From positions 1 through 42,020 of IMG/VR virus record IMGVR_UViG_3300036852_000372: a stretch of 42,020 bases of DNA. One strand, given 5' to 3'. Shown piece by piece: positions 2,146 through 28,636 of this stretch (the stretch's first letter is position 1; every line of letters starts with the position of its first letter). The notes below the pieces were generated by a model. The model searched no databases, had not been told where the DNA came from, and worked only from the letters and a program-made list of their open reading frames with translations. A program made the position numbers and the translations under genes. Source of the DNA: a virus.

Positions 2146-2862
2146 TCAAAGCCTTGCAGCTAGCGCCTTGATGCGTGCTGTGGCCTCTTCTTGTTCTGAT
2201 AGCTGTCTGGTTAGCCTTATGATCAACTTGTTGGCTCCTTCTACAGCTAACTTCAAATTATCAATTACTAGCTTCGCTTCTCCGGGCAATACAGGGTCCA
2301 TTTGTACTTCTTGAGGTGATTCTACCACTGGAGAGTCAAGAGCTATATCTGCACTTGTAGCTCTGTAGTATCCCTTATTCAGGTTGGAAACCTTACCTGA
2401 AGCTTTCAACATGACCAATCGTTGGTGGATGCTTGTGCTGTTCACCCCCGGGTGATTCAAGCTTACCTTCATTTTCAGTGTTGTAAAGTCCACTTCATTT
2501 GGGTAGGCACCCTTGAGTACTGCCAAAATATCCTTTTCCATTCCGGCCCGGCTTGTTCGTGTTTTACGAGTATGGGCGAATTTGTCAGCTTCTGTGAAGC
2601 TGGTTCCTTCTCCGTTAACTCTAATCAAATCATTAACTGTTGGCATTTCTTTCACCAGCTTAGGTATTTCAAATAAAAACCCGGCGTTCTTTAGGTGCGC
2701 CTTGAAGTTTTTCATAGAGCGATGATCGCTGGGAGTCTTTGGGGCGACGGCCACCATTCGGCCTTCCTTATTGTAGAACTTCCAGTGACTATTGCGACTC
2801 AGCTCGTAGTGCCAGCCTTGTCGCTTGGCTAGGCGGCCTATTTCGTCTATTTCGTCTGCCAT
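2146..2862 (-). CDS. HicA-fold (YcfA-like) N-terminal domain fused to winged-helix-like and coiled-coil regions
   Basis: GWHYELSRNSHWKFYNKEGRMVAVAPKTPSDHRSMKNFKAHLKNAGF parallels the HicA pattern GW..(G)SH..F....V.V.....L..GTL..I.KQAG. The middle part, DILAVLK...SIHQRLVMLKASGKV, looks wHTH-like. Strong RBS TAGGAGG. Confidence 0.5.
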   Translation of the reverse strand: MADEIDEIGRLAKRQGWHYELSRNSHWKFYNKEGRMVAVAPKTPSDHRSMKNFKAHLKNAGFLFEIPKLVKEMPTVNDLIRVNGEGTSFTEADKFAHTRKTRTSRAGMEKDILAVLKGAYPNEVDFTTLKMKVSLNHPGVNSTSIHQRLVMLKASGKVSNLNKGYYRATSADIALDSPVVESPQEVQMDPVLPGEAKLVIDNLKLAVEGANKLIIRLTRQLSEQEEATARIKALAARL

Positions 2863-2998
2863 ACAACCTCCTAAAAGATGGCGCGGTGCCGATCACCTCC
2901 CCGCGCCGGTAGAGTCTAGGCTGGTTCCCCAACATTGCGGGAGTCTTGATGGCGTCGGGGGCACGCGTTCGGCTACGTGGTATGCTTACCATCAATTC

Positions 2999-3367
2999 TT
3001 ACGCCTTTCGTGCAGAACGTACTTTTCGCCTAGAAATTTCTTTGCCGCCAGCACTTTCTGCTCCATGGCTGGCGACCATGTTCCCATCTTTCTGCTCAAC
3101 CTTCCAGCCGGTAACGGCCTTGACGACTTCCTCAGCCGCCTTATCCATCGCCTTCTGAGTCTCCACCTCAATGTACTTATCCAAGAAGTGGCGAGCCTTT
3201 TCAAGGTCTTGAATTCCACCTTTACCCTTCCATCTTTCCACATATTTGGTGATTTGACCCTGGAAGTAATCGAGTCCCAATCGGGCCACACGGTCCCAAT
3301 GTTCCTCGCCTCCAACTTTGTAGTGGGCTCCACCGACTTGCCTATCATTCGCACCCATATTGGGCAC
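2999..3367 (-). CDS. DUF3310 (SaV-like) family protein
   Basis: QVGGAHYKVGGEEHWDRVARLGLDYFQGQITKYVERWKGKGGIQDLEKARHFL matches the GG.HY...W.....F..GN..KY..R...K....DL.KA..Y pattern. The start is GTG 3367, or ATG 3358 with GGGGTG upstream. Confidence 0.6.
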   Translation of the reverse strand: MPNMGANDRQVGGAHYKVGGEEHWDRVARLGLDYFQGQITKYVERWKGKGGIQDLEKARHFLDKYIEVETQKAMDKAAEEVVKAVTGWKVEQKDGNMVASHGAESAGGKEISRRKVRSARKA

Positions 3368-3382
3368 CCCTGTAGTATACGC

Positions 3383-3889
3383 TTAGAAATTACCCGGAGC
3401 CACTTGAAAACAAGTGTATCCAGCCCTGCGCCACGCATCAACTACGCGCTGGCGATCCTCGAAAATACACAAGACCTTCGCCTTAATGCCGAGCTCTTCT
3501 ACCCAGCGCAGCTTCAACACATCATCTTGTGTCCTGTCTTCAATGCCACGAAGCATTAATTTGTCATAGACTACTCCTTGTTCGTGAAGCCACTTTCTGG
3601 TGACGTCTCTTGTACTTTCGGACCTTCCACTGAGAATGTAAATCTTGTGCCATCGGGCGAGATCGTTACAGACTTTGATGATGTTGGGTTTAGGGAGATC
3701 GTTACCCGCCGCCGCGAAATAGCGATCCCAATCTCGTCTTTTTCCACATCTACAAATCCCTGCTTGGTGGTAAATTTCATCACACCCAATAGCGTGTAGA
3801 GGATGTAAATAGTGTGCTCTGTGTCCGTCATCTGCTAACGTCCCGTCGAGGTCGAAGATGCAGATTTCCTCTCCACCCATTCTAAGCAT
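3383..3889 (-). CDS. HAD-superfamily phosphatase (polynucleotide/nucleotide 3'- or 5'-phosphatase-like)
   Basis: HAD motif I is IFDLDGTLADD. ILSGR(S) is motif II-like and FEDRQRVVDAW is motif III/IV-like. RBS GGAG lies upstream of ATG 3889. Confidence 0.75.
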   Translation of the reverse strand: MLRMGGEEICIFDLDGTLADDGHRAHYLHPLHAIGCDEIYHQAGICRCGKRRDWDRYFAAAGNDLPKPNIIKVCNDLARWHKIYILSGRSESTRDVTRKWLHEQGVVYDKLMLRGIEDRTQDDVLKLRWVEELGIKAKVLCIFEDRQRVVDAWRRAGYTCFQVAPGNF

Positions 3890-4827
3890 GCCTTTCTCCA
3901 GTCAGTTGCCTGTATTTTATTGATAAAGTGCTCATTCTTACTGCCCCCGTCCTTCCGGTGGTACCATGCCAGATACATCGGCACCGCCACCTCGTTCATC
4001 CACCGGGTGCGGTACCGACTCCCGGTTGTGTGGACGAAGTCATAACAGTCCATGAGGAGATCCTTCATCTCCTCTTCCCCAAGAATTAGAAGTGGGTAGG
4101 GAGAAACGACTCCATCTCGGTAAGGGTCCACCGGAGACCTCGTATTGAGCATCTCCTTGATCTTGGGAAGCGCCGTGTAGACGTGTGCGTTATTGGACAT
4201 AACCATGTACGACCCCACCCCAAGACCTGCCCCGTGAGCGATCAATTCTTGAAGAAGAGTCATGTGAACCACATTAGCTCCGAGCATGCCCCAGATGATA
4301 TCGTTGCTTCGGTTGCACACGGTCATGTGAAGCGCATCGGATTCCACACGGAAGTAGATGTGAGTATTGCAAGGAAGATCCCGGTGTGGCTCCAGATCAA
4401 CTCGCGGGTCCCACATCCCCAGTACAGCTCTTCGGGTTGTCCGATCCTTCTTAAGTTGATCAGCAACTGCAACGATTTGATCCACGCCGTTAAAATGATT
4501 AATCCAGCGATGGCCGTAAGCCCCGTGGACAATACCGTCTGGCTCAGCATATTCGTGATACCTCTTGTTGAATTGTGCGATCCACTCCACTTTGTTTGAC
4601 CCACTCATCATCCAGATGAACTCCATCAGATGAAAGAATGGATTCGCATCGCGAATTGGGTCAAAGATCACCCGCTCCCTGGGATCGATGATCTCCAGGA
4701 AGAATGGGTCCAGGAAAGACAGGACTGGCCCATTCCTGCTCTCCTGTTCCTCCCCTTCCAAGCTCAACCGAATCATCACTTCTGGATAGATGCTTGGAAG
4801 ATTCTCCTCGGTCACCTCAATTGCCAT
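3835..4827 (-). CDS. Thymidylate synthase (ThyA) family enzyme; dUMP methylase or hydroxymethylase
   Basis: ThyA landmarks are EFIWMMSGS, YGHRW, DQI..V..QLKKD..TRRAVLGMWD, catalytic LPCNTH, CNRSNDIIWG, GAN (Asn retained, uracil-type) and NAHVY. Confidence 0.85.
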   Translation of the reverse strand: MAIEVTEENLPSIYPEVMIRLSLEGEEQESRNGPVLSFLDPFFLEIIDPRERVIFDPIRDANPFFHLMEFIWMMSGSNKVEWIAQFNKRYHEYAEPDGIVHGAYGHRWINHFNGVDQIVAVADQLKKDRTTRRAVLGMWDPRVDLEPHRDLPCNTHIYFRVESDALHMTVCNRSNDIIWGMLGANVVHMTLLQELIAHGAGLGVGSYMVMSNNAHVYTALPKIKEMLNTRSPVDPYRDGVVSPYPLLILGEEEMKDLLMDCYDFVHTTGSRYRTRWMNEVAVPMYLAWYHRKDGGSKNEHFINKIQATDWRKACLEWVERKSASSTSTGR

Positions 4828-4994
4828 TAGATTTTCTCCTCAAAGGCCTTAAAATCCTTTAATTTCTCCTTGAATAATGTAAGATCATATTGACTCACAG
4901 TGGATAACTTCTTCCACCCCCACCATGTCTTGATATAGACTTTATAGTAGAGATAATCCCTGTTGAAAACAGGTATGAATTTAAAGTCCTGCAT
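4827..4994 (-). CDS. Unlisted 55-aa ORF (MQDFKFIPVFNRDYLYYKVYIKTWWGWKK...FEEKI)
   Basis: Found by hand translation because it falls below the track cutoff. ATG 4994 has AAGAGG upstream. Its TAA shares one base with the ThyA-homologue ATG (TAATG), and it fills an otherwise empty 150-nt gap. Confidence 0.45.
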   Translation of the reverse strand: MQDFKFIPVFNRDYLYYKVYIKTWWGWKKLSTVSQYDLTLFKEKLKDFKAFEEKI

Positions 4995-5844
4995 AATTCC
5001 TCTTTGATTTTCCGGTACCTGTCGTCACCCGGCAGTATTTGTCAAATTCGCACAGACAGTTCTGGAGGTCCTGGTTGTCCACCGGAGTTACTCCCGGAGG
5101 CCAGTGCTGATCAACCCATGTGCGAAGGTTGTTGAAGTAATGCATGAAATTTGATTCTGTGACCCCCTTTGGTCCACCTGAAAAGATCCAACTTAATCCA
5201 CGGAGACTGCCCGGCCCCGGAGTGACGAAGAAGGGTTTGTCAAACGCCTTGCTCAAAGGGTGCCCCGGAGTGTTCTTTAAGTCAGCTACAATCTGCCCAG
5301 CCAGAAAACTTCCGACTCCCTCGATCTCCTGCAGAGCCTCGGCGGCTAGGGTGCAGCTACCGCCCCGGGCTGGGTGCCCCGGCCGCTCGAGGGCTCGGAA
5401 TGCAGCGCCGAGCACGTTATCACACAGGTACCGGGCCTTGGGCATAGGTATGCCATGAGTCGTGATAACGTAGGCTCCACCCCAGACTTTTAACCCGTCG
5501 GTCGCTCGCTGCTCGAGATACTCTAGCAGTTCGTCCGGATTATGATCTTCTAAGTACCCGCAATCTTCTAGAGTCGCTACATTATTAATGAAGCGACTAA
5601 AGATGATATTATACTCAAACATACGATCACCAACGCGACGTGAATAAAACGATCGAATCCATCGCGTAACTTTGTCGTCTTCCCGGTGTACGTTACAGAA
5701 GTACGTCTTCTGGAATATGGGGTCGGAAGTCCAAGGTTTATCACGATTAGCTTCCTTCTTTATCCGGATTGACTCCCGTTCTGCCACCCAATACATAAGC
5801 AGATCCTGCGGCGTATAATCTCTTCCATTGGCATGTATAATCAT
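4981..5844 (-). CDS. aGPT-Pplase / 5-HMUDK-helical-domain-like DNA base hypermodification protein (HhH glycosylase-related)
   Basis: YWVAERESIRIKKEANRDKPWTSDPIFQKTYFCNVHREDDKVTRWI, the HhH-like GVGSFLAGQIVADLK, and LCEFDKYCRVTTGTGKSKRNY. This is recalled family resemblance and was not searched. RBS GAGGA precedes ATG 5844. Confidence 0.6.
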   Translation of the reverse strand: MIIHANGRDYTPQDLLMYWVAERESIRIKKEANRDKPWTSDPIFQKTYFCNVHREDDKVTRWIRSFYSRRVGDRMFEYNIIFSRFINNVATLEDCGYLEDHNPDELLEYLEQRATDGLKVWGGAYVITTHGIPMPKARYLCDNVLGAAFRALERPGHPARGGSCTLAAEALQEIEGVGSFLAGQIVADLKNTPGHPLSKAFDKPFFVTPGPGSLRGLSWIFSGGPKGVTESNFMHYFNNLRTWVDQHWPPGVTPVDNQDLQNCLCEFDKYCRVTTGTGKSKRNYAGL

Positions 5845-6583
5845 AGCGTACCCCGTCCTCATTTGCTAGCCACTTATCTTTTGTATTCCGCGCGACGACC
5901 TTGACGTAATCAGGGAAGCGAGCAGATAGATACTCAACCGCCTTCGTTTGCATGTCGCTTGTGCGATAGATTGAGCAACCTCCCGGGGCTTGGCAAGGCC
6001 CATGGTCTTGGAAATGGGTTGTGATAATCTTGTTTCCCTGCCCACGTGCCAAGAGTGTACAATTGAGTACCACGTCAGCCAGAATTGGAAATTGATCCAC
6101 TTTAACTTTTCCAATTAACCTCCTGTTAATTCCTTGGATGCAGATAATTCTACCGTTGTCAACGTACGGGGGCTTCGTGTTCTGCCCCATCTGTCTGGGG
6201 TGGACTCCGACCAGTGCTGTGTCTTCGAGGAGCTCTTCCATGTAATCGAAGAGTACCCCAGTTTCTTCAACATCTTCGATAGTTCTAAGACTTGGTCTTC
6301 CATCGACGAGTACTCGTCTGGAAAAGACAAGATCATCGTCAAGAATGCAGGCTTTTTCATTTGTATCATAGCCCCCAAACGCAGATGGGAATCCGTCTAG
6401 GATGTATTGGAATTTTTCACTGTAGTTAGTAATTCGTTCTGGCACAGCATACGTTTGATGTACATGCTGTATAGCTTCTTCAGCTGGACAGACCAGCCAC
6501 GTTTTATCTTTCCACCGTTGGGGCAGACGCCCCAACGTATACTGTCTTCCGACGCGTCCACGAGTCATAATATACAGGTTCAT
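5747..6583 (-). CDS. GT-A-like nucleotide-sugar transferase fold candidate (function uncertain)
   Basis: ATG 6583 with GGAGG upstream; the track start at 6625 lies inside a terminator. The first strand is NLYIMTRGR and the acidic ILDDDLVF sits about 90 aa in, like a DxD motif. There is no Walker A motif. Confidence 0.4.
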   Translation of the reverse strand: MNLYIMTRGRVGRQYTLGRLPQRWKDKTWLVCPAEEAIQHVHQTYAVPERITNYSEKFQYILDGFPSAFGGYDTNEKACILDDDLVFSRRVLVDGRPSLRTIEDVEETGVLFDYMEELLEDTALVGVHPRQMGQNTKPPYVDNGRIICIQGINRRLIGKVKVDQFPILADVVLNCTLLARGQGNKIITTHFQDHGPCQAPGGCSIYRTSDMQTKAVEYLSARFPDYVKVVARNTKDKWLANEDGVRYDYTCQWKRLYAAGSAYVLGGRTGVNPDKEGS

Positions 6584-6592
6584 AACCCTCCT

Positions 6593-6618
6593 AAAAATCC
6601 GGGGCCGTGAGGCCCCGG
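6593..6618 (-). terminator. Rho-independent terminator (leftward)
   Basis: On the minus strand, CCGGGGCC-TCAC-GGCCCCGG is followed by ATTTTT. It lies between the stop of 6622..6813 and the RBS of 6583. Confidence 0.7.
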
Positions 6619-6621
6619 TCG

Positions 6622-6813
6622 TCAATATCGCCGGCCAGACCGGCGGACCTCGGCTCTCGCTAACATTTTCAGGAATTCATTCCTTGCATCATCTTTAGCA
6701 GTGCGTTCTGGGGGTGCCGTTCCAAGAGTATCTTTGATATTGAGTATATCGTAACCTTTGTAGTCACTACTCATTATCAGATCATCTTTGGATGGTGCAT
6801 CCCAGAAGCTCAC
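6622..6813 (-). CDS. Hypothetical protein (63 aa)
   Basis: ATGA start/stop coupling with the upstream gene. No recognisable motif. Confidence 0.6.
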   Translation of the reverse strand: MSFWDAPSKDDLIMSSDYKGYDILNIKDTLGTAPPERTAKDDARNEFLKMLARAEVRRSGRRY

Positions 6814-7262: not shown

Positions 7263-7655
7263 TCAATTCGCCTTGGCAGGTTCCGCAGCCGCCGGAGCAG
7301 GGACAGCGATCAGGGCGACGGTGCCGTCCTGAATGAAAAATCGCAGCCAGCCACGCGGGGGATCCTTCTCGCCCGCCGCCTTCTGCGAATCACTCCATTC
7401 CTTCACGCTCTTGCCTGCAAGAGCGACGACGGAGTCGTACCACTTCTTGCGCGCACCGCGATACTTGTTTTCCTTGCCCGTGAGCGAGATGAGGCTCGTC
7501 TCGGCGTAGCCGTAGTTCTGGCGCGGCGCACGCTCTTTCTTGGGGGCATTCGGGTCAGCGGGGGCCTTTTCAACCTTGGGGGCCTTCGGAGCCTTCGCTT
7601 CTTTCTTGCCATTGGTCTTGCCCGGGGGCGTCAGATCGAGAGATTCAGCAGTCAT
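7263..7655 (-). CDS. Lys/Ala/Pro-rich protein with a conserved C-terminal domain; paralogue of 18336..18689
   Basis: RBS AGGAG. The N-terminus is KKEAKAPKAPKVEKAPADPNAPKK. The C-terminal YRGARKKWYDSVVALAGKSVKEW...PPRGWLRFFIQDGTV aligns with LRGARASWYAVLLQYNGKPVAEF...KPTGWLGWFTRTGV. Confidence 0.7.
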   Translation of the reverse strand: MTAESLDLTPPGKTNGKKEAKAPKAPKVEKAPADPNAPKKERAPRQNYGYAETSLISLTGKENKYRGARKKWYDSVVALAGKSVKEWSDSQKAAGEKDPPRGWLRFFIQDGTVALIAVPAPAAAEPAKAN

Positions 7656-14507: not shown

Positions 14508-16466
14508 ATGGAAGTCGTCTCCTTCCGTCCGTTTCGTATTCCCAAGCCTGCTGAAACTCAATTCTTTTCCCCTGATGACTCCGCCAATCTCCGATTTATG
14601 GAGGAAGATTTAGCTAGAAGCGGTCTTCTTCCTGATGACATGATGGCGTATACGACTCCTTTCATCAAGAAAGATGGGGCGACAGCAGCTTATTCAATCC
14701 CTTACTTCGGCTTAGACGGAAAGCCATTGACAGATGATAAGGGATTCCCAGTAATGTATCGCACGCGATTCAAACTCCCTGAGTTTAGCCGCGAACAGCG
14801 ATATACCCAACCAAGTAAAGAAGCCTTACTGAAGTTTGATCTTCCCTCTACGGTTCCGTACATCCATCCGAAGACTTTGGAGCTGAAACATGACTACATC
14901 ATCTGTTGTGAGGGAGAAAAGAAGACAGCAGCAGTTATCAAACACCTCGGAATTCCCGCTTTTGGGATCGGTGGATGTCAAATGTGGCGTGACCCATCTG
15001 GTAGTGGAGGTCCGCATCCCTGGATACGAAAGCTACTCTCCGGAAATAAGAAGCTTGTTATCATCCCAGATGGAGATGTTCTTAGGTACGATATCTGCAA
15101 CGCTTATGGAACTTTTGCCGCAACCCTTCGCTCTGAAGGCTATGATGTTGAACTCCTCAATCCCCCAGGAAAAATTGACGACCTCCTTGCGCTTTGGGAA
15201 GACAAGATTGGGAGTTTCAATGCTCTGCCTCGGCTTGATCCAACGGCCCTCGTTCAAAGCTCTGTATCACTTGCCAAACGGTACAATCTTGCTTTCAAGC
15301 AGAATGACAAAGGGGTCATCACAGTCCATCAGCACACGTCCAACGTAATGAAGCTGATGGAGGAACACCCAGCATTCCCGAAAGTATGGCGTAATACAGA
15401 CAATAACCGTGTGATGCTTGGCGACAATTACGCGCAGCCCGATTTGACTGAGATGGATATCGCCAATTATTTCCAGCACAATCTTGGATTTGACAAGGTT
15501 GGCTCAAAGATGATCTATTCATGCGTTCAAGCTCTGGCACGGCGAAATTCGCGGTCGCCGATGCTTGAATATGTGAAAAGTCTGGAATGGGATAAGACCC
15601 CTCGTCTTGAAGATTGGATGATTCGTCTATGGGGAGCAGAAGATGACAATTTTACACGGGAGGTTTCAGCCAAATGGCTCACATCTGCATGTGCCCGAAT
15701 GGATCGCCCAGGAACTAAGATTGACTGGATGCTCATTGTCGTTGGACCTCAAGGAACTGGAAAAACTTCTATGCCAGGAATTCTGTTTCGAGGTAACAAC
15801 GTCACACTCTATGGAGACCATAACGACAAAGATCTCCACATGCTACTTCATTCAGCCCTGTGCGTTGGATTTGATGAGCTGGATTCCTTCGGTAAAAGGG
15901 AGAGCTCTAATCTTAAAGCAATGGTCACAAGAAACGAGGACGCGTTTAGGCCTCCATACGGAGCATCAGTGGAGATCTTTCCACGTCGGTTTACACTCTA
16001 TGGCTGTGGCAATCGCTATGAGTTTCTACAACACGACCCGAGCGGATATCGTCGATATGCTATATTGGAAATTGATAAACTCTTGGACTTCAAAGGGCTT
16101 GAGGCTGAGCGTGACCAACTGTGGGCCGAAGCATGGCAACGCTATTCATCTGGTGATCGATTCTGGGAAATAGAGGGCGCGAGTAAACATGCGGAAGAAT
16201 ACGTAGCTCCGAACCCAATGGAAGATCAGATAATCAACATAATTGAGGGTTGGAAAAAGGGGAAGGCGAATACTAATGTAAAAGACGGAGTGGTGTACTT
16301 CACCATGACTGGTCTACTGTGTGCGCTCAATATGGAGCGTGAATCACGGAATACACATGTCACAAGAGAAATTTCAGCAATCCTAAGGGCACTAGGGGCA
16401 GAAAGAAATAACGGTTCTTGCCCTACTGGGATGATTCGCGGACGCTATTACAGCCTGCCTATATAG
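14508..16466 (+). CDS. Primase-helicase: TOPRIM domain plus VirE/D5-like P-loop NTPase plus C-terminal wHTH-like tail
   Basis: TOPRIM is IICCEGEKKTAAV...LVIIPDGDV. Walker A is VVGPQGTGKTS and Walker B is VGFDELD. The VirE-like stretch is RPPYGASVEIFPRRFTLYGCGN...GYRRYAIL. Confidence 0.85.
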   Translation: MEVVSFRPFRIPKPAETQFFSPDDSANLRFMEEDLARSGLLPDDMMAYTTPFIKKDGATAAYSIPYFGLDGKPLTDDKGFPVMYRTRFKLPEFSREQRYTQPSKEALLKFDLPSTVPYIHPKTLELKHDYIICCEGEKKTAAVIKHLGIPAFGIGGCQMWRDPSGSGGPHPWIRKLLSGNKKLVIIPDGDVLRYDICNAYGTFAATLRSEGYDVELLNPPGKIDDLLALWEDKIGSFNALPRLDPTALVQSSVSLAKRYNLAFKQNDKGVITVHQHTSNVMKLMEEHPAFPKVWRNTDNNRVMLGDNYAQPDLTEMDIANYFQHNLGFDKVGSKMIYSCVQALARRNSRSPMLEYVKSLEWDKTPRLEDWMIRLWGAEDDNFTREVSAKWLTSACARMDRPGTKIDWMLIVVGPQGTGKTSMPGILFRGNNVTLYGDHNDKDLHMLLHSALCVGFDELDSFGKRESSNLKAMVTRNEDAFRPPYGASVEIFPRRFTLYGCGNRYEFLQHDPSGYRRYAILEIDKLLDFKGLEAERDQLWAEAWQRYSSGDRFWEIEGASKHAEEYVAPNPMEDQIINIIEGWKKGKANTNVKDGVVYFTMTGLLCALNMERESRNTHVTREISAILRALGAERNNGSCPTGMIRGRYYSLPI

Positions 16467-17523: not shown

Positions 17524-17644
17524 TCCTGAGTACCGTGAGTTTCAAGATGAGTGCCTGATGGAGGTGCCAGAAGAGCATCTCCATCTGGTGCAAGGCGACT
17601 ATTCAGTCCCGGAAGGGGCCATGTTCAGGAGACAAGCGCAATGA
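17345..17644 (+). CDS. Hypothetical protein (99 aa) overlapping the previous gene by 179 nt
   Basis: GGAGG lies 9 nt upstream of ATG 17345. The C-part, HDRVFLIGPEWDPDAGWEQPIATVVAPGRYTLVRL, looks genuinely coding. Confidence 0.55.
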   Translation: MRRLWKRLISQLTEAPITPPRFKEHDRVFLIGPEWDPDAGWEQPIATVVAPGRYTLVRLDPEYREFQDECLMEVPEEHLHLVQGDYSVPEGAMFRRQAQ

Positions 17645-17856
17645 GTACGTTTACGATGGAGGAATTCATTGCTCAGCACAAGCTGGGGGTGGATATTGGA
17701 AATCCACAGGCCACTCGTCTTGTGGCCAAGAAGCTGAAGGAACTCGGCTATCGGCAAGAGCGCAGGGGGAGCCGAGGCACGCGGCAGATCGTATGGACCA
17801 ATGAGCCGAACACCATGGAAGAGTTAAAGTCCAAGCTTGCTTCGCTAAAGCTCTAA
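17641..17856 (+). CDS. Small winged-helix-like DNA-binding protein candidate (71 aa)
   Basis: ATGA coupling. RLVAKKLKELGYRQERRGSRGTRQIVW resembles the C-terminal tail of the primase (ISAILRALGAER...GRYY). Confidence 0.5.
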   Translation: MSTFTMEEFIAQHKLGVDIGNPQATRLVAKKLKELGYRQERRGSRGTRQIVWTNEPNTMEELKSKLASLKL

Positions 17857-17865
17857 TGCCATACT
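17837..17865 (+). promoter_or_regulatory. Sigma70-like promoter candidate TTGCTT-N17-CATACT
   Basis: It overlaps the last codons of 17641..17856. It points into a gene-free stretch that ends at the 17972..18005 terminator. Confidence 0.3.
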
Positions 17866-17971
17866 GGCCGCAGCTTGGCCAGTTCCATGTCAGCCATTGG
17901 CCGAGCGGGCAAAAGATCTATAGGCCTAAGATGACGTGGTATTAACGCGTGAACTTGAACTGTTGATCCGT

Positions 17972-18005
17972 AAGGCCGAAGGCACGCTCCTTCGGCCTTT
18001 CGTTA
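17972..18005 (+). terminator. Rho-independent terminator of the primase operon
   Basis: Perfect 11-bp stem AAGGCCGAAGG/CCTTCGGCCTT with a 6-nt loop, followed by TTCGTT. Confidence 0.7.
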
Positions 18006-18100
18006 TAGGCCCCCAGGTCATCTTGAAGACGATTGGATTATCGATGACGACTCTGAAATGCTGGGCCAAAGATCGTCACGAGTAGATAGGCGACGAGTCG

Positions 18101-18168
18101 GGATTATGTTAAATCCAGATTATGTTAAGTGGCACGAAACTTGCTAGCCCAAAGACACTTATGTTAAA
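18101..18168. repeat. Left cluster of the (G)ATTATGTTAA motif (3 copies)
   Basis: GGATTATGTTAAATCC (18101..18116), GATTATGTTAA (18118..18128) and CTTATGTTAAA (18158..18168). Confidence 0.85.
18130..18145 (+). promoter_or_regulatory. Sigma54-type -24/-12 promoter element 1
   Basis: TGGCACGAAACTTGCT is exactly TGGCAC-N5-TTGC, with the G after GGCAC and the T after TTGC. Confidence 0.6.
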
Positions 18169-18175
18169 CGTCCAT

Positions 18176-18191
18176 TGGCACGGAACTTGCT
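18176..18191 (+). promoter_or_regulatory. Sigma54-type -24/-12 promoter element 2
   Basis: (T)TGGCACGGAACTTGCT matches the extended consensus YTGGCACGR-N3-TTGCW at every specified position. It is part of a 26-bp imperfect direct repeat with element 1. Confidence 0.6.
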
Positions 18192-18193
18192 AG

Positions 18194-18209
18194 GCAAAAG
18201 ACGTGCCAG
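18194..18209 (-). promoter_or_regulatory. Sigma54-type -24/-12 element 3 on the opposite strand
   Basis: The minus strand reads CTGGCACGTCTTTTGC. Together with element 2 it forms a 33-bp imperfect palindrome. Confidence 0.4.
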
Positions 18210-18335
18210 CTGGGCTGTCATAATACAAAACTATTTTAGGCTGCTTAAGGGTTACCCCTATGGTAAGGCTGGCGCACTGGGCGCATAGTAGCAGCGTACC
18301 AATACGGTACTTTTCGTTAAGGCAAGGGTATACAC

Positions 18336-18689
18336 ATGGCAAAGGCAAACAAGGGTGGCAACGCCACCAAAGGCACCGGCGCACAGGCCCCGGCGGCTAC
18401 CACGGTGCAGGCTGCAACGGTGGTGCAGGCTGGCAAACCCGCGCAGCCGGGCGTGCTGCAGGTAAAGCCGGGCGTGGCGCTGCGTGGCGCGCGGGCCAGC
18501 TGGTACGCAGTGTTACTGCAGTACAACGGCAAGCCGGTTGCGGAATTTTTGGCGGCCACGGCGGCAAACCCCCCCAGCCTGCCCAAAAGCGGTGTTGCCG
18601 AAAAGCCCACGGGCTGGCTGGGCTGGTTTACCCGCACGGGCGTGGCGCAGGTGGTGCAGCCCGGTACCGAATCGGTGCAGGGTAGCTAA
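18336..18689 (+). CDS. GC-rich gene for an Ala/Gly/Lys-rich protein (117 aa), paralogue of 7263..7655
   Basis: Third codon positions are almost all G/C (gcg, ccg, ctg, cag, ggc), unlike the rest of the genome. It shares the C-terminal RGAR..WY..GK.V.E...P.GWL..F...G.V motif. It has its own terminator. Confidence 0.75.
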   Translation: MAKANKGGNATKGTGAQAPAATTVQAATVVQAGKPAQPGVLQVKPGVALRGARASWYAVLLQYNGKPVAEFLAATAANPPSLPKSGVAEKPTGWLGWFTRTGVAQVVQPGTESVQGS

Positions 18690-18711
18690 GAACCCGTAAG
18701 GGTTCCACCTA

Positions 18712-18742
18712 GGGGCGCAGCCTAAGGGTTGCGCCCCTTTTT
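18712..18742 (+). terminator. Rho-independent terminator of the GC-rich gene
   Basis: GGGGCGCA/TGCGCCCC stem followed by TTTTT. It is preceded by a smaller hairpin, GAACCC-GTAA-GGGTTC (18690..18705). Confidence 0.8.
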
Positions 18743-18751
18743 AGTGCGTAT

Positions 18752-18941
18752 GGATTTAACATAATACTTCTGCAACAGTAGCGCAACAGTCTGCAACATA
18801 ATACTGTTGCGGGGATTATGTTAAAAAACATTATGTTACATTTCGCAACACTTGCAACACTTAACATAACGTACGTGTATTATGTTATAGATAATTTGTA
18901 GGTGTGCAAAAGTTACTGTTGCGAGTGTTTTGTAGTGTTGC
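18752..18941. repeat. AT-rich array of short direct and inverted repeats (iteron/operator-like)
   Basis: ATTATGTTA/TAACATAAT copies lie at 18756, 18795, 18814, 18830, 18861 and 18880. GCAACAGT/ACTGTTGC copies lie at 18772, 18783, 18803 and 18915. GCAACACTT occurs in tandem x2 at 18845..18862, with inverted AGTGTTGC at 18934. Confidence 0.85.
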
Positions 18942-19023
18942 AGACTAACCCAACGCACCCATTTACGCCCGATCTCGCGGACAATCAGCCTACTTCCGAC
19001 TCATCCCTCCGGGAATAGGGAGG

Positions 19024-19206
19024 ATGAAAGACGACGGCGAGACGGAGATCCTCGTCCGGATGAGGAGGATCAGGGTCATAATGCAACGACTCGGGAAAAA
19101 GACCTCCCCCGGAGTGTCTTACAACAAAATGAAAGAGAAAGAGAACCTCCTGGTGGAGACATACGATATCAAGTGTCATGATTTGATTTTCGACGAGAGA
19201 GTTTGA
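19024..19206 (+). CDS. Doubtful small ORF (60 aa, Lys/Glu/Arg-rich)
   Basis: The codons look coding-like. However, GGGAGG abuts the ATG with no spacer and is sequestered in the hairpin CATCCCTCC/GGAGGGATG (19003..19027). It also competes with the minus-strand ORF 18985..19224. Confidence 0.25.
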   Translation: MKDDGETEILVRMRRIRVIMQRLGKKTSPGVSYNKMKEKENLLVETYDIKCHDLIFDERV

Positions 19207-19381
19207 TGTAGAGACTCGTGCCATCAGTACTGATCATAACCTTTGTGATTCGTCGACCAACTTGGTCACCGCGAATAATAGGCCAGTAGGGCTCCGCCAG
19301 ACGAATGAATCCCTGTTCCTCCATTTTCCTCTTTTGTCTTCGATAAGCAAGGGCTTTCTTCGTGTATTCAGTAACGATCAT
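19169..19381 (-). CDS. Hypothetical protein (70 aa)
   Basis: ATGA coupling at 19378..19381 with GGAGGGGG upstream. The track start at 19441 was trimmed. Confidence 0.55.
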   Translation of the reverse strand: MIVTEYTKKALAYRRQKRKMEEQGFIRLAEPYWPIIRGDQVGRRITKVMISTDGTSLYIKLSRRKSNHDT

Positions 19382-22346: not shown

Positions 22347-22718
22347 ATGCAAGAACTCATCCCCAAAGAGCCAGATTTCAGCGACCGAGTCCTTGAATAC
22401 TCAGACCAATTGGACGATTTTCTGTCCGATCAGGCCAAAGTCGCGAAAAATATCAACCGAGTACCGCGAAATGGCAGCCCGCGTGACCGATATATGCAGG
22501 CGCTTGCAGAAGCGTTTGAAATTGTCGGTGGCGTGCCTCGTCTCGCCCTCTGGGCAGACAAGAATTACGGCGAATTTGCTAAAATTCTTGGAAAACAGGT
22601 GCCGGGTCTTGTTCAGAACGCCTTCGCTATCAAGGCAAGCGGAAATGTCACCATTGTTTCTGCGATCCCTGCGTCATTTCTGGATGACGAACAGCCGAAA
22701 GCTTTAGAAAATGAGTGA
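22347..22718 (+). CDS. terS: Putative terminase small subunit
   Basis: It sits immediately upstream of, and overlaps, the large terminase. It is about 120 aa. The start is taken at ATG 22347 to leave a divergent promoter region; ATG 22278 is also possible. Confidence 0.5.
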   Translation: MQELIPKEPDFSDRVLEYSDQLDDFLSDQAKVAKNINRVPRNGSPRDRYMQALAEAFEIVGGVPRLALWADKNYGEFAKILGKQVPGLVQNAFAIKASGNVTIVSAIPASFLDDEQPKALENE

Positions 22719-24078
22719 TGAGAATGAAATTCGGGTAGAATATGAGCCACGAAAACAATTTCTGCCTTTTCATCTGCGAAAAACACGATTCGCATGTCTT
22801 GTTGCACACCGCCGAGCAGGAAAGACAGTTGCGTGTGTTAACGAACTTGTGGCACGAGCTATATACTCTAAGAAAAAGCGCCCCAGATACGCATACATTG
22901 GTCCTCTTCTCAAACAGGCGAAGAAAATCGCCTGGGAATACCTGAAGGAGTACACTCGTGGACTCGAATCCAAGAAACCCTCAGAATCTGAGCTCACAGT
23001 GCGATTGCGCCACAACGAAAGCGAAATCTGCATCTACGGAGCAGATAACCCTGACGCTTTCCGTGGTCAGTATTTTGACGGGGTTGTCCTCGACGAGTAC
23101 GGCGACATGTCTCCGTCCGTTTGGTCAAAAGTTCTCCTGCCCACTCTAGCAGATCGCAAAGGATGGGCCGTTTTCATCGGCACATTTAAGGGAAGGAACC
23201 ATTTCTACAAGATCTGGCGCAACGCTCAGGGTTTTGATCTTCCGGAGAACATGAACTCTTCTGAGTTCACGAAAGACTGGTATCATTTCACGTTAAAGGC
23301 CTCCGAATCTGGTATTCTGCCTGAATCGGAACTCGCTCTGCAGAAAATGCAGATGGACGAGGAAGAATATCAACAGGAATACGAGTGTAACCCGAATGCA
23401 GTCGTCAAAGGCACCTACTTCTCCAAGATCATCGCTAAACTTGAGCAAAATGGGCAAATCTACGCAGATGTGGACTGGGAACCAGATCAGCCAGTTGAAG
23501 TTGCGGCAGATCTCGGGTACACAGACTCATCTGCGTACTGGTTCTTTCAGAAGAGGCCGGGTGGTCTAGCGATCATTGATTACTTAGAGGCTCACAGTAA
23601 GCCCCTTGATTATTACTTCGATGAACTCAGGTCTCGTGGATATACGTACAATACGATCTGGCTTCCGCATGACGCTCGGGCTAAGTCGTTGCAAACTGGA
23701 CGATCCACTGTTGAGCAATTCCTGTACAATCAGTTCCCGGTGCAAATTGCTCCGCACATGGGAATTCAGGACGGTATTGAAGCTTGCCGTCTCATGCTTC
23801 CACTCTGCCACTTTAATGTGAGAACTGAATATGGCGTGGAAGCTCTCAGAGCATACAAAAGATCTTGGGATGAGGACAGAAAGGTATTTTCTGACACTCC
23901 TTACCATGACTGGTCTTCGCATGGCGCGGATGCTTTCAGATATCTCGCTCTGGTCGCTAAAGAGATTAGAGTTGATAGCGAAAAGCCGACAAGAGTGATC
24001 CCAGTCCCCAAAATTCAACTTGAGCCGTTATTTCTCGACAGGGAGAGACGTCTTAGGACTACTCGGAGCCGTATATGA
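22711..24078 (+). CDS. terL: Terminase large subunit
   Basis: Walker A is AHRRAGKT and Walker B is VVLDEYGDM. The RNaseH-like nuclease residues are AADLGYTDSSAYW and HGADAFRYLA. Confidence 0.9.
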   Translation: MSDENEIRVEYEPRKQFLPFHLRKTRFACLVAHRRAGKTVACVNELVARAIYSKKKRPRYAYIGPLLKQAKKIAWEYLKEYTRGLESKKPSESELTVRLRHNESEICIYGADNPDAFRGQYFDGVVLDEYGDMSPSVWSKVLLPTLADRKGWAVFIGTFKGRNHFYKIWRNAQGFDLPENMNSSEFTKDWYHFTLKASESGILPESELALQKMQMDEEEYQQEYECNPNAVVKGTYFSKIIAKLEQNGQIYADVDWEPDQPVEVAADLGYTDSSAYWFFQKRPGGLAIIDYLEAHSKPLDYYFDELRSRGYTYNTIWLPHDARAKSLQTGRSTVEQFLYNQFPVQIAPHMGIQDGIEACRLMLPLCHFNVRTEYGVEALRAYKRSWDEDRKVFSDTPYHDWSSHGADAFRYLALVAKEIRVDSEKPTRVIPVPKIQLEPLFLDRERRLRTTRSRI

Positions 24079-26174
24079 AAGAGAAAGATGAGAAAAAGGA
24101 AACCAGTGCTGACCTCTATAAGCATTGGGTCAAGGAATTCAGTGCGGCCAAGAAAAGTGTGTCTAAGTGGCACAAAGAGGGCGAAAAGACTGTCCAGAAA
24201 TTTCTGGACGACCGCCGTGGGGATCTCAACGATTTTTCTGAAAATACAACGAGGTTAAACCTCTACCATGCAAACATCACTACTCTTATGTCCATGTTGT
24301 ATGGACGAATACCGAAAGTGGAAGTTGATCGACGATTCGCCGACGCAGACGATGATCCAGCTCGCGTCGCCGGGGAAATTTTGTCACGGATGCTTAACAC
24401 AGATATCGAAGAAGCCGGAGAGGACATCGCCTCCGTCTTCCGCAACTGCCTGCAAGATAGACTCATCCCAGGTCTCGGAAACGCTCGGGTAAAGTACGAA
24501 TTTGAGGAAAAAGACGGACAAATTCACAACGAGTGGGTGGACATCGTCTACACCTATTGGAAAGATACCCTCTGGTCTCCGGCGCGCACGTACTCAGAAC
24601 TTCGTTGGAAAGCGTTCCGCTCATATCTCACCAAGGAGCAGGTGAAGGATCGATTCCCGAAATGCGACATCAACAAGGTTTCCTTCACGTCGAAAGGTCC
24701 AATGGCAAAGGGCCGGTACGACAAAGAGGATGAGACGAACCCACAGGCCGAAATTTGGGAAATCTGGAACAAAACCACTCGGCAGGTCATGTACTGGACC
24801 GAGGGCTACGAAAACATGCTCGAAGTCGTAGAAGATCCGCTGGAGCTCGAAGGGTTCTGGCCTGATCCGCCGCCTCTGATCGCGAATCTCACCACGACGC
24901 GCTACATGCCTCGCAGTGACTACGCCATTGCTCAGGACCTCTACACTGAGATTGACGAGCTAGAGACTCGCATCACCATGCTCACGCGAGCCTGCAAGGT
25001 CATCGGCTTGTATGACAAGAAGCAGGAAGGCCTCCAGCGTATGTTCACGGAAGGAGTGGAGAACGATCTCATCCCAGTGGACAACTGGGCGATGTTCGCC
25101 GAGAAGAACGGTCTGGTAGGTGTGGTTCAGTGGTTGCCTCTGGCAGATATCGTCAACGCAGTGGACACACTCACCCAGAAACAGAGTGAGAAGATCCAGA
25201 AGCTGTACCAGATCACGGGCATGAATGACGTGATGCGCGGCGCAGCGACGCAGGCATCGGCCCGTATTTCTGCGACTCAGCGCCAGCTGGAGGCGAACTA
25301 CGGATCGATTCGTATCGAAGCTCTACAGAACGAGTTTGCTCGCTGGGTGTCGGATATTCAAGCCCTGAAGGCTGAGATTATCGCCAAGCACTTCCAGCCG
25401 TACTGCATCATCCAGCAGTCCAATATCACGATGACTCCGGATGCTCAGTTCGCTGAGGCTGCGATCAAACTTATCAAGGCCCCCGGCGCGAGCCGCTGGC
25501 GGATTTCGGTCCGGCCGGAGACTCTCGCCATCGCTGACTACGCTCAGCTCAAGCAGGAGCGTACTGAGTATATCATGGGCATGTCTCAGTTCTTACAGTC
25601 CTCGGCACCCATTGCGGAACAGATGCCCGAGTCTGTGCCGTTCCTCATGAAGATGCTCAAGTGGGGCATGGCTGGATTCCGTGGCAGTAGCGAGATCGAA
25701 GGGGTCATGGACCAAGAAATCGCTAAGATGGAGAAGATGCCTCCGAAGCCGAAGACGGATCCGGCTCAGGCCAAGGCGCAGGCTGAATCTCAGAAACTGC
25801 AGATGGAAATGCAGATGCGGCAACAGGAAATGCAGGCAGAAATGCAGCGCGACCAACAGAAGCATCAGTTGGAAATGCAGCAGATGCACGCTAAGTTCCA
25901 ACTTGAAATGAGGCAGCAGACCCAAGAAATGCGGATGGAGATGCAGAAACTGCTAATGACTCTTGACTTCAAGAGACAAGAACTCGGGCTGAAGATTCAA
26001 GAGAAACAGGTAGAAGCAGAAGCGAATGAACAGGAACAGGCGGCTCAGTTCGCCTACAACACAGCGGAGAGGCAACATGAGGCGCAGGTATCGGCAGAAT
26101 CCGGAGACCTTGAACTTCGAAGAGATAAAGAACGAGCCAAGCTCAAGGACACAAAGCCATCTGGTAATGCCTGA
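24075..26174 (+). CDS. Portal protein with a Gln/Met/Glu-rich C-terminal extension
   Basis: 699 aa, directly after terL with an ATGA overlap. The C-terminal about 145 aa are coiled-coil-like, with EMQ repeats. Confidence 0.8.
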   Translation: MKEKDEKKETSADLYKHWVKEFSAAKKSVSKWHKEGEKTVQKFLDDRRGDLNDFSENTTRLNLYHANITTLMSMLYGRIPKVEVDRRFADADDDPARVAGEILSRMLNTDIEEAGEDIASVFRNCLQDRLIPGLGNARVKYEFEEKDGQIHNEWVDIVYTYWKDTLWSPARTYSELRWKAFRSYLTKEQVKDRFPKCDINKVSFTSKGPMAKGRYDKEDETNPQAEIWEIWNKTTRQVMYWTEGYENMLEVVEDPLELEGFWPDPPPLIANLTTTRYMPRSDYAIAQDLYTEIDELETRITMLTRACKVIGLYDKKQEGLQRMFTEGVENDLIPVDNWAMFAEKNGLVGVVQWLPLADIVNAVDTLTQKQSEKIQKLYQITGMNDVMRGAATQASARISATQRQLEANYGSIRIEALQNEFARWVSDIQALKAEIIAKHFQPYCIIQQSNITMTPDAQFAEAAIKLIKAPGASRWRISVRPETLAIADYAQLKQERTEYIMGMSQFLQSSAPIAEQMPESVPFLMKMLKWGMAGFRGSSEIEGVMDQEIAKMEKMPPKPKTDPAQAKAQAESQKLQMEMQMRQQEMQAEMQRDQQKHQLEMQQMHAKFQLEMRQQTQEMRMEMQKLLMTLDFKRQELGLKIQEKQVEAEANEQEQAAQFAYNTAERQHEAQVSAESGDLELRRDKERAKLKDTKPSGNA

Positions 26175-27673: not shown

Positions 27674-28636
27674 GTGGCATTTCCAAATGTCTCAGACTTG
27701 GTCGCAACCACAATTGAATCGCGTAGCGGTGAAATTGCGGACAACGTGACCAAGAACAACGCGCTGCTCAGCAAGCTGAAGCAGCGTGGAAACATTCGGA
27801 CGTTCTCGGGCGGAACCCTGATTTTTGAGGAGCTCAGCTTCGCAGAAAACGGTAACGCCGGGTACTATTCCGGATACGATCTCCTGCCCGTCGCGGCGCA
27901 GGACGTACTGAGCGCTGCTCAGTATGCAATCAAACAGGCGGCGGTTCCCGTCGTCATGTCCGGCCTGGAGATGCTCCAGAACGCCGGAAAAGAGAAGATC
28001 ATCGATCTGATGGACGGCCGCATGGCCGTCGCCGAAGCTTCTCTCGCCAACCTGCTTGCCTCGGGTATCTACTCGGACGGCACGGGCTCTGGTGGCAAGG
28101 AAATCACCGGCCTCAACGCTGCGGTCCCGGTCAATCCGGCGACTGGAACGTATGGTGGTATCGATCGTGCGACGTGGACCTTCTGGGCCTCGAAGATCAA
28201 CAATACCTCGGGCATCGTGGCTTCCACGATCCAAGGTGCATTGAACACTCTTTGGGCGCAGCTCATCCGCGGCAGCGATCGTCCGGACTTCCTGGTCTCG
28301 GACAATACGGTCTGGGCTCTTTACATGGCGTCTCTCCAGGCGCAGCAGCGTTTCGTGGATGTGAGCACTGGAAACCTCGGTTTCCCGAGCATCAAGTACA
28401 TGGACGCGGACTACATCCTGGACGGCGGCATCGGTGGCTTCTGCCCAGCAGGAACTCTGTTCATGCTGAACACGAAGTACATCTTCTGGCGCCCGCACCG
28501 CGATCGCAACATGGTCCCACTCAGCCCGAACAAGCGTTACGCGGTCAATCAGGACGCGGAAGTGCAGATTCTCGGCTGGGCTGGGAACCTCACCACGTCG
28601 GGCGCCCAGTTCCAGGGCCGCTTTGACAACAACTAA
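27674..28636 (+). CDS. Major capsid protein (HK97-fold expected)
   Basis: GTG start with AGGAGG 9 nt upstream. It is 320 aa and follows the scaffold gene. The GTYGGIDRATWTFW type motif is common in podovirus capsid proteins. Confidence 0.8.
   Translation: MAFPNVSDLVATTIESRSGEIADNVTKNNALLSKLKQRGNIRTFSGGTLIFEELSFAENGNAGYYSGYDLLPVAAQDVLSAAQYAIKQAAVPVVMSGLEMLQNAGKEKIIDLMDGRMAVAEASLANLLASGIYSDGTGSGGKEITGLNAAVPVNPATGTYGGIDRATWTFWASKINNTSGIVASTIQGALNTLWAQLIRGSDRPDFLVSDNTVWALYMASLQAQQRFVDVSTGNLGFPSIKYMDADYILDGGIGGFCPAGTLFMLNTKYIFWRPHRDRNMVPLSPNKRYAVNQDAEVQILGWAGNLTTSGAQFQGRFDNN

Follow-up and report, generated by a model that had tools for sequence, protein, structure and literature searches.

A probable self-contained transcription unit with a GC-rich gene and a co-inherited DNA motif in an uncultured soil phage

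IMG/VR record IMGVR_UViG_3300036852_000372 is a complete metagenomic phage contig of 42,020 bp, and its whole length was analysed here as the window. The phage belongs to a lineage of uncultured soil phages of about 42 kb that carry genes for thymidine hypermodification. We investigated the segment at 18101-18767, which contains a GC-rich open reading frame (ORF) for a protein of 117 amino acids (aa) at 18336-18689. An original prediction, made from the sequence without database searches, had read this segment as a moron-like, horizontally acquired or independently regulated cassette between inverted repeats. In this study, we found that the segment is probably a vertically inherited, self-contained transcription unit, in which the gene of a putative DNA-binding protein is accompanied by a regulatory or origin-like motif array, and not an insertion. 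What is new here is an unannotated protein family of 237 clusters with a fixed slot, a co-inherited DNA motif and sigma-54-type boxes. An island of unusual composition that has its own signals and inverted repeats can therefore be an old, core and putatively highly expressed gene and not an acquired moron, which calls for caution in island-calling in phages. Contigs or loci that were compared with the window are given L-numbers, and proteins of the family P-numbers. The features of the window are listed in Table 1.

Conservation and composition of the gene

Homologues of the 117-aa protein were searched for in metagenomes, where 61 were found, and a profile search extended the family to 237 clusters at 50% identity. 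In L001, L002/L003, L004, L005, L043, L044 and L046, the VapE primase and its variable small genes come before the gene and the terminase comes after it, and in L045 the family gene adjoins the terminase. The same slot was found in every family-bearing related contig that was long enough to judge, down to about 35-45% identity; the contigs of the distant members P0097 and P0181 were too short for gene context. A long intergenic gap upstream of the gene was always present in the relatives, and several of them hold two tandem copies of the family gene. One relative, L033 (primase 66% and terminase 55% identical), has no empty site but a non-homologous 122-aa gene in the slot (2622-3400). This gene has the same anatomy, with a TGGCACAGCCCTTGCA box, a leader hairpin, a strong terminator and TGTAACA/TGCAAC repeats nearby.

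The original prediction had proposed a comparison with bacterial genomes and related phages to see if relatives lack the cassette. No true copy was found in bacterial and archaeal genomes, with one genome taken for each of 185,579 species, and the nucleotide locus and the protein had no match among the 50,697 phage records of the INPHARED set. The sole match in the scan of species genomes, L015, was rejected as an out-of-frame artefact. Searches of Pfam, PHROGs, PADLOC and Protein Data Bank (PDB) sequences with the protein or its profile gave nothing significant, and Rfam on 17600-19300 gave only sub-threshold chance matches. Neither Pfam nor PHROGs contains the family, which is hence unannotated.

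The base composition of the gene was then compared with that of the window. The GC content of the ORF was 67.5% against a window mean of 51.8%, and among 55 curated, strand-consistent ORFs of the window, which served for all codon statistics, it ranked first for GC, for GC at third codon positions (GC3) and for GC at first and second positions (z 2.5-3.3). The 354-nucleotide (nt) stretch with the highest GC content of the contig begins at 18353 (68.4%, z about 3.9 against all sliding windows). The flanks had 47.7% GC at 18000-18299 and 42.7% at 18750-19049. The ORF is thus far richer in GC than its surroundings, as had been predicted. The surroundings, which had been called AT-rich, do lie below the window mean, but their AT-richness is only mild. 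The statement that third positions are almost all G or C was too strong, since GC3 is 0.77-0.78 and that of the major head gene is 0.74. The gene therefore stands out in both GC and GC3 when these are computed, but its GC3 bias is common to the head gene.

The protein is rich in Ala, Gly, Val, Thr, Pro and Gln, and its composition combined with genome-average codon usage predicts a GC content of 60.9%, so that about 55% of the GC excess is attributable to the amino acids. The rest is GC3, with 0.776 observed against 0.552 expected. The next ranks for GC3 were held by the major head protein (0.740), a paralogue of the gene at 7263-7655 (0.721) and the gene after the head gene (0.702). When the head gene was used as the reference for the codon adaptation index, the paralogue ranked second and the ORF third of the 55. 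Synonymous codon usage of the ORF correlated with that of the head gene at r = 0.55, compared with r = 0.22 for the rest of the genome. The preference for GC-ending codons is common to the head gene, which fits selection for high expression. The paralogue has 62% GC, forms the third-highest GC window of the contig and belongs to the early operon, where it is flanked by the SNF2 helicase and the hypermodification genes.

Relatives showed the same tendency. In more than 20 relatives of about 50% GC, the gene had 56-69% GC compared with 48-56% in the flanks, and in the GC-rich contigs L028 and L029 it was no richer than its flanks. These results indicate that the composition of the gene is roughly constant whatever the genome. 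Within the conserved domain, 19 substitutions relative to L016 fell at third positions, compared with 4 and 3 at the others, a pattern that fits purifying selection in the frame of the ORF. GC3 also remained high in relatives across saturating synonymous divergence. On these sequence comparisons, the GC pattern fits purifying selection together with expression-linked codon preference, and not unameliorated foreign DNA.

According to the original prediction, acquisition would be refuted if related phages carried the same gene, with the same composition, at the same site and without repeat brackets. The relatives largely show this, as gene, composition and site agree, but the motif that forms the brackets is present in them as well. 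The same slot and GC excess in relatives, and no copy of the gene in genomes of 185,579 species, speak against a moron-like horizontal acquisition.

Predicted transcription signals

Sigma-54 (RpoN) recognizes the consensus TGGCACG-N4-TTGCW, with GG at -24, GC at -12 and fixed spacing. Upstream of the gene, a 27-nt unit is duplicated at 18130-18156 and 18176-18202 (89% identical), and the two elements in it, P1 and P2, each read TGGCACG-N4-TTGCT. Exact matches to TGGCAC-N5-TTGC occurred three times in 42 kb, all within 18130-18208. The third lies on the minus strand of a palindrome at 18176-18208, where it reads TGGCACGTCTTTTGC; both strands fit the sigma-54 consensus, face to face. A scan of the plus strand of the upstream region for sigma-70 promoters found no site. 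The private promoter-like elements that had been placed at 18130-18209 therefore exist as duplicated boxes, and their type is the -24/-12 type of sigma-54 and not that of sigma-70.

Similar boxes were found in about 11 relatives. Boxes with GG-N10-GC that match the consensus at 8 or more of 10 positions lie 137-205 nt before the ATG in the window and in L001, L004, L005, L008, L013, L016, L017 and L022. Similar ones are also present upstream of the gene in L043, where TGGCAC-N5-CTGCA boxes follow a tandem repeat array, and upstream of the non-homologous slot gene in L033. Among the ~40 window proteins scanned with Pfam, no enhancer-binding AAA+ activator or sigma factor was found, so a sigma-54 promoter would need a host activator. 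On balance, we lean slightly towards the view that the boxes act as sigma-54 promoters, a class that they fit by their sequence.

It is possible, if rather unlikely, that TGGCAC...GTGCCA instead forms palindromic sites for a dimeric regulator, or a hairpin, and that transcription starts from an unrecognised promoter of sigma-70 type or of a phage-specific kind. In the window, the promoter-proximal box forms the left half of a 33-nt palindrome, and this design recurs in at least eight relatives; the palindrome could serve as an operator or as a face-to-face promoter. The missing activator gene would also agree with this alternative, and L007 and L044 have A/T-rich sequence instead of the box. 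However, the non-palindromic copies (18130 in the window, L008-1, L016-1, L022-1, L013-3 and L033) retain the left half, the full TGGCAC-N5-TTGC, with sigma-54 spacing. They keep exactly the plus-strand half, which suggests that selection acts on the half-site with its sigma-54 spacing. In addition, TGGCACG-N4-TTGCW would be matched by chance about 0.01 times in 84 kb, and the sigma-70 scan was negative.

We also examined the sequences that follow the boxes. The leader is about 130 nt long, and 20 of 21 relatives have a hairpin at the equivalent place whose stem differs in sequence. When each sequence was folded separately against shuffles, the mean z was -1.33 (t = -4.8), and the predicted stem-loop thus appears to be conserved by its structure and not by its sequence. 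Nearly all relatives have a terminator behind the gene, and its stems covary among them. The strong private terminator expected at 18712-18742 was recovered as a 12-bp stem followed by five Ts, with a folding energy of -27.1 kcal/mol. In contrast to the stems, the word CCTAAGGGT, which comprises the loop and its neighbourhood, is conserved (18711-18738 in the window; L001, L005 and L007). A related word, TAAGGGTT, recurs at 18246 in the leader and at 18697, and in L005 CCCTTAGG/CCTAAGGG words form a run upstream of the gene.

Both sides of the unit have further hairpins. The hairpin at 17969-18002 has a folding energy of -21.5 kcal/mol (17962-18012), with an equivalent hairpin and T-run in L005, and it is the probable terminator of the rightward primase operon, which would insulate the unit on the left. 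The hairpin at 19096-19120 contains the word AAAAAGACCTCCCCCGGAG (plus-strand reading), kept at equivalent sites in L007, L008, L010, L011 and L013, and is the probable terminator of the leftward small-gene block, with the same effect on the right. ORF 19024-19206 on the plus strand overlaps this hairpin and is probably spurious. With its own promoter-like boxes, a structured leader, its own terminator and the hairpins of the flanking operons as insulation, all predicted, the segment agrees with the independently regulated cassette of the original prediction.

The motif family around the gene

The segment had been described as bracketed by two 16-mers that match at 15 of 16 positions as an inverted repeat. 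The repeat is real, and it aligns at 15 of 15 positions between 18103-18117 and 18751-18765 (pair I3). However, it is not unique, because its arms are two of eight copies of a motif. Six exact copies of TTATGTTAA and two with one mismatch, in both orientations, all lie between 18104 and 18888, and the motif was found nowhere else in the window. Four of the copies, at 18816, 18831, 18861 (minus strand) and 18880, belong to a non-coding array at 18769-18945, and arrays comparable to it occur in L001, L005 and L033. Spacing between the copies in the window is irregular (15-49 nt). In L001, L004, L005, L007, L010 and L011, the extended form GGAWTTAACATAAT stands right after the terminator, which explains the 15-nt match of the two window copies.

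The motif accompanies the gene in relatives. Across 26 loci, the 19 kb beside the gene contained 78 occurrences of TTATGTWA and the remaining 187 kb contained 4, an enrichment of about 190-fold, and the motif was present at 22 of the 26 loci. It directly abuts the -24 box (ATTATGTWA-N2-TGGCAC) in the window, L001, L008, L013, L016, L017 and L022. L043 has 6.4 tandem copies of an 18-nt unit, AATTGACATGTTATGTTA, at 4098-4210, which is 160-275 nt upstream of the gene. Since the motif is conserved beside the gene across loci, these results indicate a conserved cis-element that is coupled to the gene and not the ends of a transposon.

Insertion of the cassette into a pre-existing repeat array had also been suggested. 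No direct repeat abuts the arms, so that no target-site duplication was found here either, in agreement with the original prediction, and there is no second copy of the unit in the window. The Pfam scan of the ~40 window proteins found no transposase or integrase domain. Transposable elements and miniature inverted-repeat transposable elements carry their inverted repeats at their termini; here copies are also internal to the supposed ends and beyond them. An insertion or mobility is thus opposed by the motif flanking the gene at 22 of 26 loci, and by the missing transposase and target-site duplication.

The array at 18769-18945 is a candidate operator or origin region. We also considered whether the whole non-coding area at about 17860-19100 might be a replication origin, with iterons of the P4 ori/crr type or lambda type, served by VapE or another initiator, and the gene embedded in it. 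This overlaps with the reading of a self-contained unit and adds that the strong transcription of the gene, its product or both would serve the origin, by transcriptional activation or as an origin-binding accessory. Direct and inverted TTATGTTAA and TGCAACA repeats on both sides of the gene, the tandem units of L043 and the AT-rich stretch of 42.7% GC agree with an origin. The area also follows directly after the primase operon, at a strand switch and a local turning point of GC skew, and the motif is confined to the locus genome-wide. However, no initiator was identified, no DnaA boxes or elements of that kind came to light, although none had been looked for, the GC skew merely tracks gene orientation, and the motif abuts the -24 box in many relatives, as an operator or activator site would. 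We consider this reading of the area unlikely. Purine-rich short repeats of GAAGACGA and GAGGAT mark the margins of the non-coding region, at 19010-19080 of the window and in the flanks of L002, L007 and L012, and L012 has a long GAGATCTCTCCGA-type array at its outer margin.

Protein, known systems and neighbouring genes

The structure of the protein was predicted by AlphaFold2 with a 33-sequence alignment. Residues 40-107 form a beta-H1-H2-H3-beta domain at a predicted local distance difference test score (pLDDT) of about 90, and residues 1-38 are disordered, a tail rich in Ala, Gly, Thr, Val, Gln and Lys. The invariant residues are R50, A52, R53, W56, Y57, L60, G65, P80, S81, P83, E89, G93, W94, L95 and R100. 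In a Foldseek search of the PDB, the best matches were winged-helix modules (RNA polymerase III C39, PriA and an RRE domain), all with E > 1 and template-modelling scores (TM) of at most 0.52. In BFVD, the best match was an unnamed protein (E = 4.6e-3), and PhiJL001 gp18 was matched with a probability of 0.77. On this model, the domain resembles a winged helix, and the most likely role of the protein would be to bind DNA.

The domain was also found in a few proteins of bacteria, as the N-terminal part of fusions with nuclease modules. In P0194, it precedes an HNH module with a match to PADLOC mREase_IV, beside an AriA-like ATPase (L036-L038). In P0187, it precedes PDC-S36 / NOV_C, and in P0192 (L035), it precedes MrcB_N and NOV_C in a Dnd-type island, beside DndE and Dnd-associated genes. 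Such fusions are rare, a handful among the 237 clusters, and when a profile was built from the fused domains, every protein that it recovered was small and stood alone. Taken together, the protein data and the fusions point to a nucleic-acid-binding module, and the occasional fusions to defence nucleases are a lead to the ligand of the domain.

From these results we propose how the unit may work. Transcription would start from the two tandem sigma-54-type promoters once a host activator, or an unrecognised phage activator, acts. The transcript would pass the structured leader, whose hairpin may stabilise or regulate the mRNA, and the strong ribosome-binding site, and would end at the strong intrinsic terminator, all of which are predicted. 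The protein would be made in quantity and would bind DNA, and its most economical target would be the motif arrays around its own gene. Binding to the arrays could lead to autoregulation, to the organisation of an origin-like region beside the replication module, or to both. The GGAWTTAACATAAT motif (10-16 nt) would then be a protein-binding cis-element, as operators or enhancer sites, or as iterons. The binder of the array may be the gene's own product or, as a live alternative by analogy to P4 ori/crr, the VapE primase-helicase.

Several points weigh against a self-contained unit that works in this way. The different gene in the slot of L033 shows that there is some turnover at this place. 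About half of the relatives have no recognisable -24/-12 box, the phage seems to bring no activator or sigma factor of its own, and the promoter-proximal box lies within a palindrome that could alternatively be a dimer-binding site. High expression is inferred from codon bias and signal strength only. The fold matches are weak, so that both the winged helix and the DNA binding are putative.

A wider role is conceivable for the family. It might be an undescribed DNA-reader domain that binds GGAWTTAACATAAT arrays, as the autoregulated hub of an origin, a centromere-like site or a sigma-54 enhancer, and maybe also hypermodified thymidine; we regard this as improbable. The genes at 3383-6625 on the minus strand suggest that the phage DNA contains hypermodified thymidine. 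The window holds two paralogues of the family, one of them beside the gene cluster of the 5-hydroxymethyldeoxyuridine (5-hmdU) kinase, and the domain occurs in fusions with bacterial nucleases, so that a shielding of modified DNA from nucleases is possible. The domain resembles the reader domains of type IV and other modification-dependent nucleases in being N-terminal to HNH mREase_IV, NOV_C/PDC-S36 and MrcB_N + NOV_C modules. The phage proteins, unlike these, stand alone.

The unit was also compared with iteron-type origins and the autoregulated winged-helix proteins that bind them (plasmid Rep, lambda O, and P4 alpha with ori/crr). The likeness lies in direct and inverted motif repeats around a small gene beside a replication module, and in a protein with a predicted winged-helix-like fold. 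In contrast to Rep, O and alpha, to which it has no sequence similarity or significant structural similarity, the protein is far smaller and has a domain of about 68 aa.

Phage YuA is another system with similar components. In its annotation, three promoters are recorded as measured, with the words "-24/-12 consensus, high activity". A passage of PMC10914365 describes YuA as sigma-54-dependent, citing Ceyssens et al. 2008. YuA and the phage of the window share genes for thymidine modification of the deoxyuridylate-hydroxymethylase type, a family A DNA polymerase, a primase and -24/-12 promoters, which in the window are predicted from the sequence. In YuA, the sites drive structural and lysis genes and have a poorer consensus, whereas the boxes of the window are perfect, tandem and placed before one small gene. 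No member of the protein family was found in the first 50 kb of YuA. If the sigma-54 boxes of the window are functional, they would be a second, cleaner case after YuA of a phage that uses the enhancer-dependent sigma factor of its host.

Morons are autonomous promoter-gene-terminator units of lambdoid and HK97-like phages and are defined by patchy presence and foreign origin. The unit resembles them as a single small gene with its own signals between two operons, and both a predicted promoter and terminator of its own and an unlike composition were found. It differs from them in that its site is constant across a deep lineage, the genome contains a paralogue, no cellular homologue was found and the composition has been kept through long divergence. 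Patchy presence with joined flanks was not seen, as every slot-spanning relative is occupied, L033 by the other gene, and the databases scanned held no cellular or unrelated-phage homologue that would tell of an outside origin. It is highly improbable that the unit is a moron or a small mobile cassette with terminal inverted repeats that came recently from a GC-rich donor and inserted at the junction of primase and small genes. The top GC content of the contig, the private boxes and terminator, the 15/15 inverted repeat at the edges and the different gene in L033 would suit such an origin, but gene, site and GC excess are common to all family-bearing related contigs down to about 35-45% identity, the bacterial genomes scanned lack the gene, a GC-rich paralogue stands in the early operon, GC3 persists through saturating synonymous change, the repeats are a motif family of at least eight copies that is conserved at 22 of 26 loci and does not stay within the two ends, and neither a target-site duplication nor a transposase was found.

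Table 1. Coordinates of the unit at 18101-18767, its signals and other features of the 42,020-bp window
Feature	Position	Strand	Remarks
HAD/PNKP-type phosphatase	3383-3889	-	
Thymidylate-synthase-like enzyme	3835-4827	-	
5-hmdU DNA kinase	4981-5862	-	PF18723, E = 3e-35
292-aa protein	5747-6625	-	faint glycosyltransferase match
Paralogue, 130 aa	7263-7655	-	KAPK-rich basic tail; hmmsearch E = 1.6e-11; hhalign probability 97%
VapE-type primase-helicase	14508-16466	+	
GC-rich hairpin, then TTTCGTT	17969-18002	+	inverted repeat I4, 14 nt, 93% complementary
Motif copy GGATTATGTTAAATCC, left "bracket"	18101-18116	.	family D1, pair I3
Motif copy ATTATGTTAAG	18119-18129	.	abuts first sigma-54-like box
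Sigma-54-type -24/-12 element P1, TGGCACGAAACTTGCT	18130-18145	+	exact consensus match; left unit of direct repeat D4; inferred start about 18156
Motif copy CTTATGTTAAA	18158-18168	.	
Sigma-54-type -24/-12 element P2, TGGCACGGAACTTGCT	18176-18191	+	exact consensus match; inferred start about 18202
33-nt palindrome TGGCACG-GAAC-TTGC-TAG-GCAA-AAGA-CGTGCCA	18176-18208	.	folding energy -15.2 kcal/mol
Leader stem-loop GTACC-AATAC-GGTAC	18296-18310	+	about 25 nt before start codon
Shine-Dalgarno sequence AAGGG, within conserved initiation region AGGGTAYACAYATG	18324-18328	+	read from sequence
Coding sequence, 117 aa	18336-18689	+	disordered tail, residues 1-38; conserved domain, residues 40-107
Intrinsic terminator	18711-18746	+	12-bp stem (9 GC pairs, 18711-18738), loop CTAA, T5; -27.1 kcal/mol
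Motif copy TGGATTTAACATAATAC, right "bracket"	18751-18767	.	
Non-coding, AT-rich array (about 43% GC) flanked by convergent terminators	18769-18945	.	TGCAACA/TGTTGCA repeats and four motif copies
Hairpin AAGACACTCC-GGG-GGAGGTCTT, then T5	19096-19120	-	
Large terminase	22711-24078		
Portal	24075-26174		
Major head protein	27674-28636		phrog_9953, E = 1.7e-107

The leftward early block of the window encodes the family A DNA polymerase, the SNF2 helicase, a PD-(D/E)XK nuclease, the 5-hmdU DNA kinase and the thymidylate-synthase-like enzyme. Stenotrophomonas phage BUCT555, the best match of the head protein, was dropped as a comparator because its early region differs. Stenotrophomonas and Myxococcus were considered as hosts from the likeness of the head protein and were rejected, as the GC content of those hosts does not fit. 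The head protein shares 75% identity with its counterpart in BUCT555 and about 60% with the counterparts in Myxococcus phages Mx8 and Mx9. The early regions of the window and of these three phages are unrelated despite this likeness, and the comparison indicates a mosaic structural module.

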